Part shown: piece by piece, positions 23,666 through 49,182 of the stretch
Layout of the letters: every line of letters begins with the position of its first letter
Numbering within the stretch: the stretch's first letter is position 1
Source of the DNA: Actinobacteria bacterium HGW-Actinobacteria-7
GTDB lineage: Bacteria > Actinomycetota > Coriobacteriia > Anaerosomatales > PHET01
Assembly (NCBI GenBank): GCA_002841275.1
Contig: PHET01000002.1
Coordinates: 19,181-83,180, forward strand
Reading direction: 5' to 3'
Length of the DNA: 64,000 bases
Notes under the pieces: model-generated
What the model saw: only the letters and a program-made list of their open reading frames with translations
The model's database searches: none
Told to the model about the DNA's origin: nothing
Made by a program: the position numbers and the translations under genes

Positions 23666-23765
23666 GTTCAGACACCTCCGATAGCGCCTTGGTTTCCGAC
23701 CAAGGCTGGACAGCCCGCGTAGTGTATCACCGCTTACCAAGCGCAGCAACGGATACGAGGCTGTT

Positions 23766-28918: not shown

Positions 28919-29971
28919 CTACCGCGGCAGCGCGCTGCGCACTGCCGCGTCACGGTTTCCGGACAACGCCTCGAGATTCCCAAGCTGGCGCGAGATACCC
29001 AGAAGCGAACCCAGCAGGTCGCCGAACTGGTCCTCGTAGGTGATGGTCTCGTACTTCCCCTTGATACCGCCGCGTTTGGCCGCCGCGTCCATCGCATCCT
29101 GATAGGTCCCGAGCCTGTCGATCAGTCCGAGCTTCTTTGCCTCTTCGCCGTTCCACGCCCAGCCGGTGGCCATGCTCTCCACCTGCGATCGGGGGAGACT
29201 GCGCCCCTCGGCGACGATATCGATGAACTGCCCGTAGGCCTCATTGACCGAACCCTGTATGAGCGCGCGTTCTTCTTTTGAGAGCGGCCGGTAGAGACTG
29301 CCCGCGTCCTTGTACTTCCCTGCAGTGATGACCTGGAAGTTGACTCCGACCTTGCCGAGCAGCGCTCCCACGTTGGGAATCTCCGAGATCACACCGATGC
29401 TTCCAACCGCCGAGCCGGGCATCGCCCATATCTCATCTGATTGTGACGCGATCATGTACGCCCCCGACGCGCCCACATCGCCCACCGACACAACGACAGG
29501 CTTCGAGCACTGCTTGATGTAGCGCGCGATCTCCTCGCTTGCAGCGACCGTCCCTCCGGGAGAGTCGACCCGCAAGACTATCGCCTTGACCCGTACGTCT
29601 TCCTCGGCGCGCTTGAGCAGCTCGTAGAAGTATTCCGGGGTCACTACACCGCTCACATTCGAGCCAGAGCCGGCGATCACTCCATCGACATGGATGACGG
29701 CTACTGCTCCTCCGCCGCCTGTCGCACCGGAGTTGAAGCCCTTCCCAGCCAGAAGAACGAAGGGTATCGTGCACGAACCGACGATGAGCAGCATCAGAAG
29801 CGCGACTCCCAGCGTCCACCAGATCCACGCCTTGCTACGCCGCGGCACAGCGGACGTGACCGACGGCACCGCGGTCACATAGGCCGGAACTACGCCCACC
29901 TGCTGCGGAACCGTCGGAATCCTGGACGTGCCGGCTTCAGGTGGGATCGGGGGGTGACCTTGGTCAGCCAT
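28919..29971 (-). CDS. sppA: Signal peptide peptidase SppA (S49)
   Basis: One TM, RVDSPGG, ASGAYMIA, GSIGV, GKYKD, GLIDRLG. Confidence 0.92.
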   Translation of the reverse strand: MADQGHPPIPPEAGTSRIPTVPQQVGVVPAYVTAVPSVTSAVPRRSKAWIWWTLGVALLMLLIVGSCTIPFVLLAGKGFNSGATGGGGAVAVIHVDGVIAGSGSNVSGVVTPEYFYELLKRAEEDVRVKAIVLRVDSPGGTVAASEEIARYIKQCSKPVVVSVGDVGASGAYMIASQSDEIWAMPGSAVGSIGVISEIPNVGALLGKVGVNFQVITAGKYKDAGSLYRPLSKEERALIQGSVNEAYGQFIDIVAEGRSLPRSQVESMATGWAWNGEEAKKLGLIDRLGTYQDAMDAAAKRGGIKGKYETITYEDQFGDLLGSLLGISRQLGNLEALSGNRDAAVRSALPR

Positions 29972-30074
29972 CAGGCGCCCTTTCGAGGATTTGAGCACCA
30001 CCGAATGTCAGATGGGGTGCGGGGATACAGATGATTCTTCCCCAGCAAGGGGGGTCGGTCAATCACGCGAGGCC

Positions 30075-30992
30075 TTAGAGCAGCCGTGCCCCTGTGCGAT
30101 CCACTCTCAGCGCCTGCGGTGCGCGGCGCGTCCCAAGTGCACGAATGCGCTCGGCCGCCCTGTCGGCGACCTGCTGCGCAAGAGCGTGTGCGAGTTCATC
30201 AGTGTCGCCTGCAACCAGCCCGATCACCGTGGGCCCTGCGCCGGAAAGGGCCACTCCGGCTGCGCCGGAGTCTCTCAGGATGTCATGGACCTCTCTCAGG
30301 TCAGCGACCGCAGCGGCCCGGTACGGCTCATGCAGTCGGTCCGCAAGTGCGGCACCCAGAAGCTCCGGTCTGCCCACCGCGATGGATGCCGCGAGAAGTC
30401 CTGCGTGAGCCACATTGAACGCCGCATCTTCGTGGGGCACTGCGTCAGGCAACATCGCGCGGGCCACGCGCGTAGCGAGCTCGGCGATCGCGGGCACTAC
30501 GACTGCCGCGAGACCGCGTGCAGGCTCAAACCGCGCGAAACGCGGGCCACCAACATCGGTCCAACATACGGTGAAACCACCCACGAGCGCTGCGGCGACG
30601 TTGTCCGGGTGCCCCTCGATCTCTGTGGCCAGCTCAAGAACCCGCTGCTCTCCAAAATCGACGCCGACAAGTGCCTGACCCAGCAAGAGTCCCGCGATGA
30701 TGGCTGTTGAGGACGAACCCAGTCCCGAACCCGTGGGCACCTGATTGACGCAGCCTATCTCGGCCCGCAGCTCGGGGTGCCCTGCCTCGGCGAACGCGCG
30801 CGCCATGGCCACAGCGGCAAGGTTGGTTCCGTCGGTTGCCAGCGCGCCGGCTCCCGCACCCGAAACCACGACTCGCCACTCAGGCGCGAGTTCCGCCTCG
30901 AAGCGGTTGTGCAGATCCAAGGCGAGGCCGAAGCTATCGAACCCCGGACCGAGGTTGGCCGATGTAGCCGGAACGAGAACCGCAGCTCCCAT
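30075..30992 (-). CDS. thrB: Homoserine kinase
   Basis: VPATSANLGPGFD, PTGSGLGSS, EGHPDN, SGAGPT. Confidence 0.96.
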   Translation of the reverse strand: MGAAVLVPATSANLGPGFDSFGLALDLHNRFEAELAPEWRVVVSGAGAGALATDGTNLAAVAMARAFAEAGHPELRAEIGCVNQVPTGSGLGSSSTAIIAGLLLGQALVGVDFGEQRVLELATEIEGHPDNVAAALVGGFTVCWTDVGGPRFARFEPARGLAAVVVPAIAELATRVARAMLPDAVPHEDAAFNVAHAGLLAASIAVGRPELLGAALADRLHEPYRAAAVADLREVHDILRDSGAAGVALSGAGPTVIGLVAGDTDELAHALAQQVADRAAERIRALGTRRAPQALRVDRTGARLL

Positions 30993-30996
30993 GCGA

Positions 30997-32283
30997 CTAG
31001 ATATCTTCTACACGGATGACGGCTGCAGTACGCGACACCACGTCAAGCGCCTCGATCTCGGACAAGGCCGAGCGCACAGACGCTTCACGGGCACAGTGCG
31101 TGACGTACACGATTTCGGCCACGCCCTCCTCCGCCCGCTTCTGGATGACCGAGGCGATCGACACCTCATGGGCGCCAAACACACTCGCGACGGCCGCGAG
31201 CACGCCGGGCTTGTCGGCGACTTCGAGCCGGATGTAGTAGCCGGTTTCGAGATCTGCGATGTCGCGCAGAGGCAGCACCTCGGTGCAGGTGCACCCCACA
31301 GTGGGCGCGCTGCCGCTCTGGATGCGACGAGCGACCTCGATCAGGTCGCCCACCACAGCAGAAGCAGCAGGCAGTGAGCCTGCACCCTCGCCAAAGAACA
31401 TCGTCTCACCCACAGAGTCGCCCACCACGTAGATCGCGTTGTAGACGCCGTTGACACTAGCGAGAGGGTGAGACGTGCGGATCATCGTAGGATGAACGCG
31501 AATATCGACACCGGAGTCGGTACGGCGTGCGATTGCGAGCAGCTTGATGGTGCTGCCCATCTCGCGCGCATAGGCGATATCGGCGGGTGAGAGCGAGCGG
31601 ATTCCCTCGGTGGGAACCTGACTCATCACGACCCGGCTGTTGAAGGCGATGGAAGCCAGAATGGCAATCTTGGCAGCGGCGTCGTGGCCGTCCACGTCTG
31701 CGGTGGGATCCGCCTCCGCGAAGCCGCGGGCCTGCGCCTCGGCGAGCACCGTATCGTAGTCGAGCCCGTCGTCGGCCATACGGGTGAGCATGTAGTTGGT
31801 TGTGCCGTTGACGATTCCCATCACGGTGACGATCTCGTTGCTGGTCAGGGAGTGCTTGAGCGGTTCGATGATGGGGATTCCGCCGCCGACCGATGCTTCG
31901 AAGCGGATGTCGACGCCCGAGGCTTCCGCCGCCACCATCACCTCTTCGCCTGAGGTCGCCATCAGCGCCTTGTTGGCGGTCACGACGCTCTTGCCGGACG
32001 CGAGCGACTTCAGTACGACGTCACGCGCGATACCCGTCCCGCCGATAAGCTCGATGATCACATCGAGTGACGGATCGTCGATGAGCGCCTGGGCATCATC
32101 GGAGCACGCCTCGGCGGCAAGGCCTAGATCAGCGAAGCGGGCAGTATTGCGATCGGCGAACCGGGCCAGCTCGATATCGACTCCGGCACGACGTCGGAAG
32201 TCCTCACGATGACGGCCCAGGATCTCTATGACACCGGATCCAACGGTGCCAAGGCCGATAAGACCAACACGGATGGTGCGCAT
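30997..32283 (-). CDS. hom: Homoserine dehydrogenase with C-terminal ACT domain
   Basis: GLGTVG, VVTANK, FEASVGGGIP, NGTTNY, EADPTADVDG, DKPGVLA. Confidence 0.96.
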   Translation of the reverse strand: MRTIRVGLIGLGTVGSGVIEILGRHREDFRRRAGVDIELARFADRNTARFADLGLAAEACSDDAQALIDDPSLDVIIELIGGTGIARDVVLKSLASGKSVVTANKALMATSGEEVMVAAEASGVDIRFEASVGGGIPIIEPLKHSLTSNEIVTVMGIVNGTTNYMLTRMADDGLDYDTVLAEAQARGFAEADPTADVDGHDAAAKIAILASIAFNSRVVMSQVPTEGIRSLSPADIAYAREMGSTIKLLAIARRTDSGVDIRVHPTMIRTSHPLASVNGVYNAIYVVGDSVGETMFFGEGAGSLPAASAVVGDLIEVARRIQSGSAPTVGCTCTEVLPLRDIADLETGYYIRLEVADKPGVLAAVASVFGAHEVSIASVIQKRAEEGVAEIVYVTHCAREASVRSALSEIEALDVVSRTAAVIRVEDI

Positions 32284-32399
32284 GGAGAACCTCCGGGAGA
32301 CGTTGTTGAGACGCACTGAATGGCGTGCAGCCTATTCTACCCGAGAGTGGCCGCGAGCCACCGGTCAGACGGACAAGACCCGCCGACGCACCGCAGCCG

Positions 32400-32792
32400 C
32401 TACGGTGAGCCCTTGGCCCAGTGCAGGTACTCAGCCAGGTCGGCCTCTCGCGCCTCAGGCGTACCAAGCTCCAGTTCACGCCGATACTCCGCGGCGGCGA
32501 TAAGATCACGCGGCTCCATCCGCGCCACACCGACCCACATCTCAAGCTTGGCCAGATTGCCATCGCTGACCTTAAGCGCCGCCAGCATCAGCCGACACGC
32601 AGTCTCGTCCGCTTCCTCACCGCAGTCCGGTGCAGGAGCGAGATCGGCGAGATAGACAGCGGCGTGCGTGTGGGCGGGCGCGGGGAAGCATTCGCGCAAC
32701 CGCGCATTCACTGTCCGAGAATCCCAAAACGACGCCTTGTACCCGAGCTCATCAGGGTGGTTCGGTTCCGGCGTCTCCACGCTGCTACTCAA
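32400..32792 (-). CDS. Hypothetical protein (130 aa)
   Basis: Fills the gap between hom and the thioredoxin gene; TTG start overlaps the upstream stop; protein-like helical composition (RLMLAALKVSDG...RDLIAAAEY). Confidence 0.65.
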   Translation of the reverse strand: MSSSVETPEPNHPDELGYKASFWDSRTVNARLRECFPAPAHTHAAVYLADLAPAPDCGEEADETACRLMLAALKVSDGNLAKLEMWVGVARMEPRDLIAAAEYRRELELGTPEAREADLAEYLHWAKGSP

Positions 32793-33201
32793 GACCCTTG
32801 TCGATGAATGTGCGCAGGGTCGAGGCGTCGGCCGCGCCGTCTAGCCGGGCAATCTCGGTCCCATTCGTGGCGACGATTATCATCGACGGAAGGGTGGTCA
32901 CCCGATGATCGTCAGCGATCTTCGCACTTGACTCGTCTGTGTTCACCGCGCCGTAGATCACGAACTCGACCTTTCCCGCATACTCTGACTGTAACCCGTT
33001 GACCACGGGCCTCATCTCAGCGCACGAGGGTCAACTTGGGTCGCCGAATATGTATAGCGTAGGCAGCCCGGAAGCCGATGGCGCCCACACCGTTCCGGGC
33101 GCGGCCCCGTCAGCCACCTGTGTCGAGACGCAGCCCCCCGCACCCACAACAAGCAGCGCGAGGAACGCCATCATCACCAATATCGTGCGGAGCCTGATCA
33201 T
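32785..33201 (-). CDS. Probable selenocysteine-containing lipoprotein thioredoxin (UxxC), 138 aa
   Basis: ATG 33201 gives MIRLRTILVMMAFLALLVVGAGGC (lipoprotein-like signal)...LPTLYIFGDPS-[TGA 33031-33033]-PSCAEMRPVVNGL...TTLPSMIIV. The frame continues into the 76-aa ORF-track fragment, and TGA occupies the first Cys of CxxC. Confidence 0.85.
32993..33011 (-). promoter_or_regulatory. Putative bacterial SECIS element
   Basis: mRNA GGCCCGU-GGUCA-ACGGGUU: 7-bp stem with a G-first apical loop starting 26 nt after the UGA. Confidence 0.7.
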
Positions 33202-33262
33202 CGATCAAGCATACCCGAGCCGAGCCGACGCGTGAACGCCGCGCCGCTCCTCCCGCCGAGCC

Positions 33263-34624
33263 TCAGCCCAACTCACACTTCATCAGATCGTCGTAGGTCT
33301 CGCGCCGCACGGCCCAGCGCCAGCCACCGTCGACGACGAACACGACACCGGGGCGCACCTGCTTGTTGTAGTTGCTGCTCATGGACTGGCAGTATGCCCC
33401 CGTTGCGCACACACACAGGATGTCTCCGACATCCGGGCACTGCAGAGGCGCATCGTTGACTACGATATCCCCGCTCTCGCAGTGCTTCCCCGCGACCGTG
33501 GCCACCATCTCGCGCGGCCTGTCCGCCTTGTTGGCGATCATCGCCTCGTAGTGCGCATCGTAAAGGGATGTACGGATGTTGTCTGACATGCCGCCATCGA
33601 CCGCCACATAGGTGCGGATGTTGGGAATCTCCTTGATCGAGCCCACGGTATAGAGGGTCACACCCGCATTGGCAACGATAGAGCGTCCCGGCTCGACGGC
33701 CATGCGCGGCACGGTCAGCCCGTGCTTCTCGCACTCCGCCTTGATCCCGTCGACCACCACTTTGCCGTAGTCCTTGATTGTCGAGGGCTCGTCCGGAATG
33801 CCGTAGGCGATGCCCAGTCCGCCGCCCGTATCGAGCATGCCGACCCCGACGCCCGTCTCGGCCTTGATCTCAGCGATGAACTCGACGATGACCTCGATGG
33901 CCTTGGAGAAGCTGTTCAGGGCGAAGATCTGGCTGCCGATGTGCATGTGCAGCCCGTCGAAGTCCAGTCCGGGCAGCTCGATTGCCCGCTTCACGGCAGC
34001 CATCGCGAGTCCCTGATTGCGGCCGAAGCCGAACTTGGAGTCCTCGGCGCCGGTCATGATGAAGTCGTGCGTGTCTGCCTCGACTCCCGGGGTGACGCGC
34101 AGGAGCACTTTCTGGTTGATGCCTCGCTCACTTGCCAGAGCGCTCAGGCGGTCCATCTCCTCGAAACTGTCGACAACGATGCGGCCAACCTTGGCATCGA
34201 GACACTCGGTCAGCTCGACAGGGGTCTTGTTGTTCCCATGGACATAGATGCGATCCATCGGAAAGCCCGCTCGGCGCGCGAACGCCAGCTCTCCACCGCT
34301 GGAAACGTCCAGGCAGCACCCCTCGTCAGCCACGATCTTCAACATGGCAAGCGACATGAATGCCTTGCCCGCGTAAACGACGTCCACGTCTTTCCAGTGA
34401 TAGGTGGTCCACTTCACATACTCCGAAAGCTGGTGGCGGATGGTCGCCTCGTCCATCACGTAGACCGCGGTTCCCGCTTCGGCTGCGAGATCGACCATAT
34501 CCACTCCGCCGATCCACAGGTGGCCATCTTTCACCTGCGCGGTCATGGGCAGCACGGACATGAGGTCGTGACCCGTCTTGAGGTCCGGCGTCGCCGGCGG
34601 TCGCGGTGCGCTGGGTCTACCCAT
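33263..34624 (-). CDS. lysA: Diaminopimelate decarboxylase
   Basis: YAGKA (PLP Lys), HGNNK, SKFG, HIGSQ, EPGR, HCESGD, TGAY. Confidence 0.96.
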   Translation of the reverse strand: MGRPSAPRPPATPDLKTGHDLMSVLPMTAQVKDGHLWIGGVDMVDLAAEAGTAVYVMDEATIRHQLSEYVKWTTYHWKDVDVVYAGKAFMSLAMLKIVADEGCCLDVSSGGELAFARRAGFPMDRIYVHGNNKTPVELTECLDAKVGRIVVDSFEEMDRLSALASERGINQKVLLRVTPGVEADTHDFIMTGAEDSKFGFGRNQGLAMAAVKRAIELPGLDFDGLHMHIGSQIFALNSFSKAIEVIVEFIAEIKAETGVGVGMLDTGGGLGIAYGIPDEPSTIKDYGKVVVDGIKAECEKHGLTVPRMAVEPGRSIVANAGVTLYTVGSIKEIPNIRTYVAVDGGMSDNIRTSLYDAHYEAMIANKADRPREMVATVAGKHCESGDIVVNDAPLQCPDVGDILCVCATGAYCQSMSSNYNKQVRPGVVFVVDGGWRWAVRRETYDDLMKCELG

Positions 34625-36520: not shown

Positions 36521-36739
36521 CTATGCGGTCACGAGCAGCGTATCCGCGTATTCGCCATCGTTGGGGAACATGTCATGGGGAACACGATCGCGACCGAGGC
36601 TCTCGAAGATCCGGTGTCGCGCACAGGTGAAATGGTCACCCAAGCAGTACCGGTTCTTGAATATGTCGGCCATTGCAGGCATGTTGTCCATCTTGTCGTG
36701 GAAGAACGGGCATCCAGGCAGGCATTCGCATTCGTTCAT
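36521..36739 (-). CDS. Small Cys-rich hypothetical protein (72 aa)
   Basis: AGGAAGGAAG RBS; MNECECLPGCPFF...RYCLGDHFTCAR...VPHDMFPN. Confidence 0.75.
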   Translation of the reverse strand: MNECECLPGCPFFHDKMDNMPAMADIFKNRYCLGDHFTCARHRIFESLGRDRVPHDMFPNDGEYADTLLVTA

Positions 36740-36755
36740 CGAGCTCACTTCCTTC

Positions 36756-37217
36756 CTAGTGACGGACGAGGGCCGCGGAGAAGCGCTTGGGGAGCAGACC
36801 GTAGAGATAGCACCCCAGGCAGAAGTCCGCGAACGCATCCAGTGAGGCGACTCCGATGAAGAGCGCCGCCACAACGTTGAACCAGAACATCGAATGGAAC
36901 GAATACGCCATCATCAGGGCAATGCTCGACATCAACCCCGCCAACAGCGCAGCGAACCGCTTGGGGGCGGAGTCGACACGCCTGCTCTCGAGCTCGAGCA
37001 TCCTGACTACGAACCTTGAGACCATGCAATTAGGGCTACAGGCGAAACCGGCCACGATCTTGACAAGGTAGTCCAGCGCCAGATAGCCGAGAATCCAAGG
37101 TGACTTCGTGACGACCGCCGCAACCAACAAGGCGACAACCAGTGTCGCGTTCACACGTGCCGCAGCCTCGTCGACTTTCTCGCCCCCAATGGGACATTGA
37201 GCCACTCGTTCCACCAT
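36756..37217 (-). CDS. DUF4395-like membrane protein
   Basis: VDEAAARVNA, APKRFA, FCLGCYLY; about four TMs. Confidence 0.8.
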   Translation of the reverse strand: MVERVAQCPIGGEKVDEAAARVNATLVVALLVAAVVTKSPWILGYLALDYLVKIVAGFACSPNCMVSRFVVRMLELESRRVDSAPKRFAALLAGLMSSIALMMAYSFHSMFWFNVVAALFIGVASLDAFADFCLGCYLYGLLPKRFSAALVRH

Positions 37218-49106: not shown

Positions 49107-49182
49107 TGGAGCCGACGAGCGGATTCGAACCGCTGACCTGCGCATTACGAGTGCGCTGCTCTACCAGCTGAGCTACGTCGGC
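49107..49182 (-). tRNA. tRNA-Thr (anticodon CGT)
   Basis: Minus strand GCCGACGTAGCTCAGCTGGTAGAGCAGCGCACT-CGT-AATGCGCAGGTCAGCGGTTCGAATCCGCTCGTCGGCTCCA; 76-nt cloverleaf with encoded CCA. Confidence 0.97.

Follow-up and report, generated by a model that had tools for sequence, protein, structure and literature searches.

An in-frame UGA and a covarying SECIS hairpin in the gene of a predicted exported thioredoxin-fold selenoprotein from the order Anaerosomatales

Among bacterial selenoproteins, those with a thioredoxin fold and a UxxC motif, where U denotes selenocysteine (Sec), are the most frequent. Two reviews include "Thioredoxin (PF00085), UxxC" and "Thiol:disulfide interchange protein (pfam13098), UxxC" among the bacterial selenoprotein families and state that most selenoproteins have a thioredoxin-like fold (PMC13188914, PMC9312934). 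Here we analyze a gene of this known kind, trxU, which is located on the minus strand of a stretch of 64,000 nucleotides from Actinobacteria bacterium HGW-Actinobacteria-7 (order Anaerosomatales, class Coriobacteriia; contig PHET01000002.1, positions 19,181 to 83,180). The whole stretch is referred to as the window, and positions are counted from its first letter unless another contig is named. From in silico evidence, we consider it very probable that the product of the locus is an exported thioredoxin-fold protein of minimal size, made as a precursor of 138 residues, probably anchored by a lipid, and with Sec as nucleophile (U57-P-S-C60); this supports the interpretation put forward in an original prediction made from the letters of the window. 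The top Pfam families of the gene are identical to the two listed families, the likeness being one of family description. Shared features are Sec in place of the first Cys of CxxC, a selenocysteine insertion sequence (SECIS) just 3' within the coding region, and the existence of Cys homologues. The window family differs from the listed families in that a minimal domain of 92 residues stands behind a lipoprotein signal, transmembrane segments, or a rhodanese domain, in that its SECIS is fixed in the codons for P-V-V-D/N-G/R-L, and in that it is nearly confined, in a sample of the phylum, to one order of the Coriobacteriia.

Three other systems serve for comparison. The closest solved folds are those of TrxA (PDB 1fb0, 4ba7, and 2h74); the window protein differs from TrxA in its motif (U-P-S-C for W-C-G-P-C), in the absence of the TrxA N-terminal strand and helix, and in its export signal. 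Proteins of the ResA/CcsX/TlpA type are the CcdA-dependent extracytoplasmic thiol reductants of monoderms. The window protein resembles them in having a membrane-tethered external thioredoxin-fold domain and in its genomic setting with CcdA, CcsA-type genes, and many c-type cytochromes, but it lacks the TlpA-type insertions and uses Sec, and its gene is adjacent to neither ccdA nor ccsA; a functional link with these reductants is something that we only infer. The SECIS loop of Escherichia coli fdhF is GGUC. The window loop likewise starts with G-G-U, on a stem of 6 to 7 bp and at a spacing within 16 to 37 nucleotides (nt), and GGUC loops are also present at the formate dehydrogenase Sec sites of the same genome, at 18 nt from the UGA compared to 26 nt in the window gene. 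Unlike SECIS elements of the fdhF type, the window hairpin has no evident bulged U, and its sequence is constant across three protein architectures.

Reading frame, homologues, and protein fold

The full coding sequence (32785..33201, minus strand) runs from ATG 33201 to TAG 32787..32785 and comprises 138 codons followed by the stop. Its sole internal stop, codon 57, is the TGA at 33033..33031, which takes position 1 of the redox motif U-P-S-C. As noticed in the original prediction, the automatic listing of open reading frames does not report this gene; it gives two halves only, namely, 33031..33201 (56 residues) and 32785..33015 (76 residues, MRPVVNGL...), and the second is the fragment called in place of the full gene. 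The read-through product starts with MIRLRTILVMMAFLALLVVGAGGC... and continues through PTLYIFGDPS-U-PSC to ...TTLPS..., so that the predicted thioredoxin strand, the Sec motif, and the segment with the presumed cis-Pro are all present. Three DNA runs of a single groundwater metagenome study contain the locus. The TGA is covered by contigs of two of these runs (X1 and X2, possibly the source samples) with zero differing letters, which speaks against a sequencing error; the third run (X3) does not cover it.

The same TGA was found in related genomes. When 61 of these were searched with the read-through product as a query, 58 gave a match, and 56 contained at least one match with exactly one TGA (counted by hand from the table). 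In 29 of the 30 loci that were fetched, the TGA is in the same column, within the motif F-(Y/E)-(Y/F)-x-x-x-x-U-(P/Q)-x-C. The 30th locus (L041, G011:C17) encodes a transmembrane-anchored protein that has lost both redox residues (GDPG-NQQQS) as well as the hairpin and is a redox-dead relative. An alignment of 29 sequences (A2), which are 30 to 77% identical to the window protein, has invariant columns at F52, U/C57, C60, P65, V66, V67, P105, G114, and G122. Conservation is thus seen on both sides of the UGA, as the original prediction required. A homologue from the same genus is 68% identical across residues 6 to 137, a segment that spans the TGA, and the congener L056, which is 73% identical, likewise uses TGA as its Sec codon. 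Compared with L056, 34 of the 58 nucleotide differences 5' of the UGA fall on the third base of a codon, and 18 of the 40 codons that differ are synonymous; this third-position bias indicates that the upstream part is coding. The anticipated alternation with Cys was also observed: Cys occupies the Sec column in the database proteins P0006, P0007, and P0009 (FYTDW-C-PxC) and in four CPFC lipoproteins (L044 to L047). One further database sequence, P0008 (a JGI protein of 136 residues in the full-length lipoprotein form), has Trp at this column (FYTDW-W-PSC), which may come from a TGG allele or from a reading of TGA as W.

The read-through product matched the Pfam families Thioredoxin_2 (PF13098; 37.6 bits, cutoff 27) and Thioredoxin (PF00085; 35.2 bits, cutoff 23.5). 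An AlphaFold2 model built from 29 homologues has a predicted local distance difference test score (pLDDT) above 96 for residues 41 to 138. Its elements are a strand (48-52), a helix (58-73), a strand (79-83), a helix (90-98), two strands (106-110 and 116-121), and a helix (126-137), in the order beta-alpha-beta-alpha-beta-beta-alpha, with U57 at the N terminus of helix 1. Residues 1 to 40 have low pLDDT, as signal peptides and linkers usually do, and the signal region has no secondary structure. A Foldseek search of the PDB placed thioredoxins on top (probability of 1.00, TM score on the target of 0.75 to 0.81, and root mean square deviation of 1.3 to 2.4 Å over 90 to 99 columns), and a profile search of the PDB sequences also retrieved thioredoxins, with E values of 1e-19 to 1e-12. 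The features of a thioredoxin active site are in place: U57 and C60 (resolving Cys of U-x-x-C, codon at 33022..33024) are located at helix 58-73, and P105 (T-L-P-S, codon at 32887..32889), the cis-Pro position by sequence, precedes strand 106-110, all three residues being invariant. Strand 1 and the active site are missing from the 76-residue piece, since this starts after the UGA. More specific identities were considered and rejected, namely, classical TrxA (TIGR01068; 35.2 bits, with an equivalog cutoff of 96.8), SaoT (NF040730; 16.6 bits, with a cutoff of 65), and a redoxin of the TlpA/ResA type, as neither Redoxin nor AhpC-TSA was among the seven Pfam families at an E value of ≤0.01. No other selenoprotein model of NCBIfam was matched at an E value of ≤0.01, and no model of that collection covers this Sec-containing thioredoxin (Sec-Trx) family.

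SECIS hairpin and selenocysteine machinery

The candidate SECIS is the hairpin GGCCCGU-GGUCA-ACGGGUU (32993..33011, minus strand), which overlies codons 64 to 70 (R-P-V-V-N-G-L). The bacterial SECIS model, as given in a review, calls for an apical loop of 3 to 9 nt, an upper stem of 4 to 16 bp, a G in the first two loop positions, and a distance of 16 to 37 nt between UGA and loop (PMC13188914). With a 5-nt loop (GGUCA) that starts 26 nt past the A of the UGA and a stem of 6 to 7 bp, the window hairpin satisfies this model, in agreement with the original prediction of a G-first loop. The 60 nt from the UGA fold with a minimum free energy of −28.6 kcal/mol (z = −3.53), and only 1 of 200 shuffled sequences folds as well. 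In the minimum free energy structure that RNAfold gave for the window sequence only, the core hairpin is surrounded by an extended lower stem (32975..33030), for which support is weak.

The helix was assessed by covariation in a gap-free alignment of these 60 nt from 29 loci. RNAalifold returned a single consensus helix, columns 24 to 29 with 35 to 40, and the lower stem specific to the window was not part of it. Pairing in this helix holds for 173 of 174 cells, and both sides have changed in 19, so that compensatory changes are seen in addition to the fit with the model. Two pairs covary, with several pair types at 24-40 (GC, 21; GU, 3; AU, 2; CG, 2; UA, 1) and two at 27-37 (UA, 15; CG, 14). 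Neither the observed pairing nor the covariation score was matched by any of 500 shuffles, and pairing dropped to 19 to 49% when the 3' partner was slid by one to three columns. Pair 27-37 couples the synonymous third base of a Pro codon to the first base of the codon four residues later: CCC occurs with GGG (Gly) and CCU with AGG or AAG (Arg or Lys). Extra compensatory variants were found at pair 28-36 in the paralogue described below and in other loci (UUG/GAA and CUG/GAG; U-A or C-G, Leu/Glu). The SECIS RNA, through its stem and loop, thus imposes on helix 1 both the invariant P-V-V and the alternation between G and R. The Cys forms have P-T-V, P-I-V, or P-T-I at that place and are therefore free of the RNA constraint.

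Such a hairpin was absent from the equivalent place in all 11 non-Sec homologues. Additional controls came from search patterns derived from a single protein, which favored an ...EYAG... motif; most of the resulting 35 loci were ordinary WCGPC thioredoxins and were used as negative controls. Among these loci, the four UGA forms of the Sec-Trx family had 6/6 pairs, and none of the 30 non-UGA matches reached 6/6 (maximum, 5/6). The unrelated UGTC thioredoxin L080 had 2/6 pairs. A scan of 32250..33300 with Rfam gave no family at the gathering score and no bacterial SECIS match; a match to neisseria_FSE on the opposite strand (23 bits, with a cutoff of 50) was below threshold and was treated as chance.

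The genome (2.53 Mb, 100% complete, 38 contigs) encodes the machinery for Sec incorporation that the original prediction had expected. We found selA (517 bits), a tRNA-Sec with anticodon UCA (69 bits, over the Rfam gathering score), the winged-helix domain specific to SelB (57.7 bits), and selD (372 bits). The last contains one in-frame TGA, which falls in ...SKAG-U-AAK..., the canonical Sec site, indicating that SelD is itself a selenoprotein here. On contig C34, selD (29881-30807; L011) is about 1.6 kb from selA (32442-33542), and on contig C2, tRNA-Sec (32383-32475) and selB (36641-36781) are about 4 kb apart. A genome scan for an in-frame TGA followed by a hairpin with a GGUY loop gave 13 matches, comprising the window gene, a paralogue, two Sec sites of the formate dehydrogenase type, and 9 matches that look noncoding. 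The formate dehydrogenase-type sites (C15:51172, minus strand, ...HCARL-U-HSSTVAGL...; C28:44097, minus strand, ...HQARI-U-HSSTVAGL...) carry GUGGCC-GGUCU-GGCCGC hairpins 18 nt past the UGA and provide positive controls for the SECIS loop from within the genome. The paralogue (L050; contig C1, approximately 185,9xx-186,746, plus strand) combines an N-terminal transmembrane segment, a rhodanese domain (CATGARS), and an FFTDS-U-PTC module; in its SECIS, U-A replaces G-C at pair 28-36. The genome also encodes its own TrxA (L049, WCGPC).

These data bear on whether the UGA is read as Sec at all. A nonsense mutation or a miscalled base would mean that only the 76-residue piece, or nothing, is made, and it is true that TGA ordinarily serves as a stop here, as at the end of the adjacent lysA, and that gene callers give the short piece only. 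Nevertheless, 29 of 30 loci of 30 to 77% identity share the TGA column, a nucleotide signature of the family recurs 147 times within the order (119 of 146 genomes; see below), divergence 5' of the TGA is still that of a coding region, two runs agree on the TGA, and the short piece would have neither strand 1 nor the active site. We regard a pseudogene or an assembly error as hardly credible and as effectively refuted by conservation. Decoding of the UGA as Trp or Cys, either by near-cognate read-through or by a reassignment throughout the lineage, finds a single argument in the Trp of P0008 and appears very improbable. It is opposed by the full Sec machinery with a selD that itself uses U, by the restriction of the hairpin to UGA forms, with a G-first loop at the 26 nt that fits the bacterial SECIS model, by the use of TGA to terminate neighboring genes, and by the correspondence of this column to the CxxC nucleophile, a place at which Trp would destroy the chemistry.

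Export, redox context, and competing functions

Members of the family have three architectures, and the Sec-Trx module is C-terminal in all of them: short forms with a signal peptide, proteins of about 290 residues with an N-terminal domain and two transmembrane segments, and proteins with an N-terminal transmembrane segment and a rhodanese domain, including the second copy on contig C1. The window gene encodes a short form. Its predicted signal peptide (residues 1 to 23, MIRLRTILVMMAFLALLVVGAGG; 33133..33201) has Arg3 and Arg5, a hydrophobic core, and small residues preceding Cys24 (codon at 33130..33132), which lies in a lipobox-like G-A-G-G-C and would be lipid modified and start the mature protein. 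A permissive lipobox pattern of the PROSITE style is matched by 10 of the 11 short forms at 25 to 40 residues ahead of U, and the 11th (L040) has AWGC. The other short forms have N termini equivalent to that of the window protein, several of them with classical boxes (LAGC, LSGC, and VAGC), and the window copy has GAGGC. Lgt (three matches) and LspA are both encoded in the genome. The lipobox-like Cys of the short forms, the presence of Lgt and LspA, and the transmembrane architectures together indicate that the thioredoxin domain acts outside the membrane, most likely with a lipid anchor. At the level of sequence, export as a lipoprotein is well supported, and the lipoprotein-like signal of the original prediction is borne out by the conserved Cys and by the two processing enzymes.

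The following sequence of events can be proposed. SelB-GTP-Sec-tRNA(Sec) would bind the hairpin and insert Sec at the UGA; the signal peptide would direct the protein across the membrane via the Sec (secretory) translocon, and Lgt and LspA would lipidate and cleave it at Cys24. In this monoderm anaerobe, the thioredoxin domain would then remain anchored on the external side of the membrane, where the selenol/thiol pair would exchange with disulfides of exported proteins, and one of three CcdA-type electron importers might keep it reduced, so that it could serve, e.g., the thiols of apocytochrome c.

The context of the last step is as follows. The genome contains three matches to DsbD_TM/CcdA-type membrane electron importers, and a search of it for VKOR and DsbB found neither. 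There are four matches to CcsA-type cytochrome c assembly proteins, and 35 stop-to-stop frames with 4 to 20 CxxCH motifs point to a large complement of multiheme c-type cytochromes. Frames rich in CxxCH are located on several contigs, e.g., C32 (88697-100922, just beyond the window), C2, C5, C12, and C15, and the homologue L018 adjoins a multiheme cytochrome gene. Cultured Anaerosomatales are strict anaerobes that have 17 to 18 multiheme cytochromes and respire sulfur, thiosulfate, or Fe(III) (PMC9686372). Taken together, the CcdA homologues, the missing DsbB and VKOR, the CcsA-type genes, the CxxCH frames, the anaerobic relatives, and the neighbor of L018 favor a reducing role, although the direction of electron flow, judged from context only, has about an even chance of being the reducing one.

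Several observations weigh against parts of this picture. At the level of the gene, no evident Shine-Dalgarno sequence precedes ATG 33201, the neighbors lysA and hom carry no functional clue, the neighbors of the homologues vary (a major facilitator superfamily transporter, peptidase M42, GGDEF, CWB2, and DNA alkylation repair), and the sequencing runs that contain the locus include no RNA run. As to anchoring, the lipobox G-A-G-G-C is atypical at position −3, and the lipobox pattern is not specific, since it matches two transmembrane helices (L019 and L021) as well. As to function, ResB was not found in the genome, and on contig C38 a Cys-containing thioredoxin-like gene adjoins a ccdA and could be the reductant of cytochrome maturation instead.

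The same selenoprotein could be held by an uncleaved signal anchor or be secreted in soluble form. The departure of VGAGG-C from the classical L-[AS]-[GA]-C and the hits of the permissive pattern in transmembrane helices speak for this; a Cys at the same distance after small residues in 11/11 short forms, several of them with classical boxes, and the presence of Lgt and LspA make it quite unlikely. Motifs of the X-P-x-C type, with Pro after the nucleophile, occur in oxidizing Dsb proteins too, and the protein may have another job outside the membrane, as an oxidant or isomerase (DsbA/DsbC-like), as a scavenger of peroxides or electrophiles, or in the handling of sulfur or selenium. The fusion of the Sec-Trx module to a membrane-anchored rhodanese in a sister architecture hints at sulfur transfer, and the Cys protein next to ccdA already offers a candidate for the reducing task. 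The physiology of the cultured relatives (PMC9686372) can be read both ways, as they respire sulfur, thiosulfate, or Fe(III) but are strict anaerobes. Since neither DsbB nor VKOR was found for reoxidation in a genome that is 100% complete and three CcdA homologues supply reducing power outside, such another job is possible but doubtful. A broader proposal is that the Sec-Trx module, in its lipoprotein, transmembrane, and rhodanese forms, is the main extracytoplasmic thiol reductant of the order, fed by CcdA and serving cytochrome c maturation and/or sulfur respiration; we consider this speculative and unlikely to hold in full.

Distribution, database entries, and significance

To follow the family at the nucleotide level, we used the signature TGA-N6-TGY-N12-CCY-NTG-GTC-RAN-RGG, in which two stem pairs are left unconstrained. 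Within the order, it gave 147 matches in 119 of 146 genomes (82 of the 98 high-quality genomes), and the reversed control pattern gave none. By eye, all listed matches pair at both free positions, three of them via G-U. In an even draw of 401 genomes from the phylum, the signature was found in the window genome (G000) and in 3 of the 4 other genomes of the order, in none of the 27 genomes from other orders of the class, and in 3 of 10 genomes of one other family. Two matches from this other family (L098 and L099, from G213 and G269) are transmembrane anchored and read SN(Y/F)-U-LVC-LA(G/S)KPVVDGLE with the same SECIS codons, indicating that the Sec-Trx module extends beyond the order.

The nearest named records are metagenome-assembled genomes of uncultured Coriobacteriia, and a truncated relative (P0043), labeled Anaerosomatales by NCBI, is nearly identical to the sequence of L035, which comes from another genome of the order; this fits the assignment to Anaerosomatales (OPB41). 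The original prediction that annotation would shorten the gene was correct for the family at large: among the best 120 database proteins retrieved with the A2 profile, 115 are 71 to 76 residues long and start at the Met just past the active site. P0002 (76 residues) is the database entry of the window gene, and the relatives P0003 to P0005 are equally shortened. The short proteins bear the names "thioredoxin family protein," "thiol-disulfide isomerase," or similar, and none is called a selenoprotein. A literature search gave no relevant link between selenoproteins and Coriobacteriia, its matches being concerned with the gut or nutrition, and none between selenocysteine and Anaerosomatales or OPB41. 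The main texts of BSepDB and deep-Sep mention neither thioredoxin nor Actinobacteria, and the family may already be listed in the supplements.

As for the locus itself, trxU is flanked by argS and lysA upstream and by hom and a GHMP kinase gene downstream, and the adjacency of lysA and trxU or of trxU and hom recurs in L016, L028, and L056. A gap of about 470 nt (approximately 32317..32784, minus strand) separates the stop of the gene from hom and contains a frame of 130 residues (32400..32792); this frame and another of 119 residues had no Pfam match. No promoter-like site was found in the gap, and no nucleotide conservation was seen when it was compared with that of the congener L056. The true start of hom may be the ATG that follows GGAGG near 32276. 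One terminator-like site was located within the region encoding the signal peptide and was treated as chance. Elsewhere in the window, we noted a tRNA gene (49110-49182, minus strand; Rfam RF00005, 72.8 bits) and an L31-Coriobacteria ribosomal protein leader (23673-23706, minus strand; 33.9 bits, with a gathering score of 33), which fits the class assignment.

The finding exposes an annotation error that runs through the order, in that the relatives of this Sec-Trx protein stand in databases as stubs of 71 to 76 residues, and it offers a clean natural case of an RNA signal that constrains protein sequence. It also points to selenium-dependent redox chemistry outside the membrane in the poorly studied, cytochrome-rich subsurface Coriobacteriia. 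If the module were indeed the main extracytoplasmic reductant of the order, extracellular electron transfer in a widespread lineage of the subsurface would have a hidden dependence on selenium.

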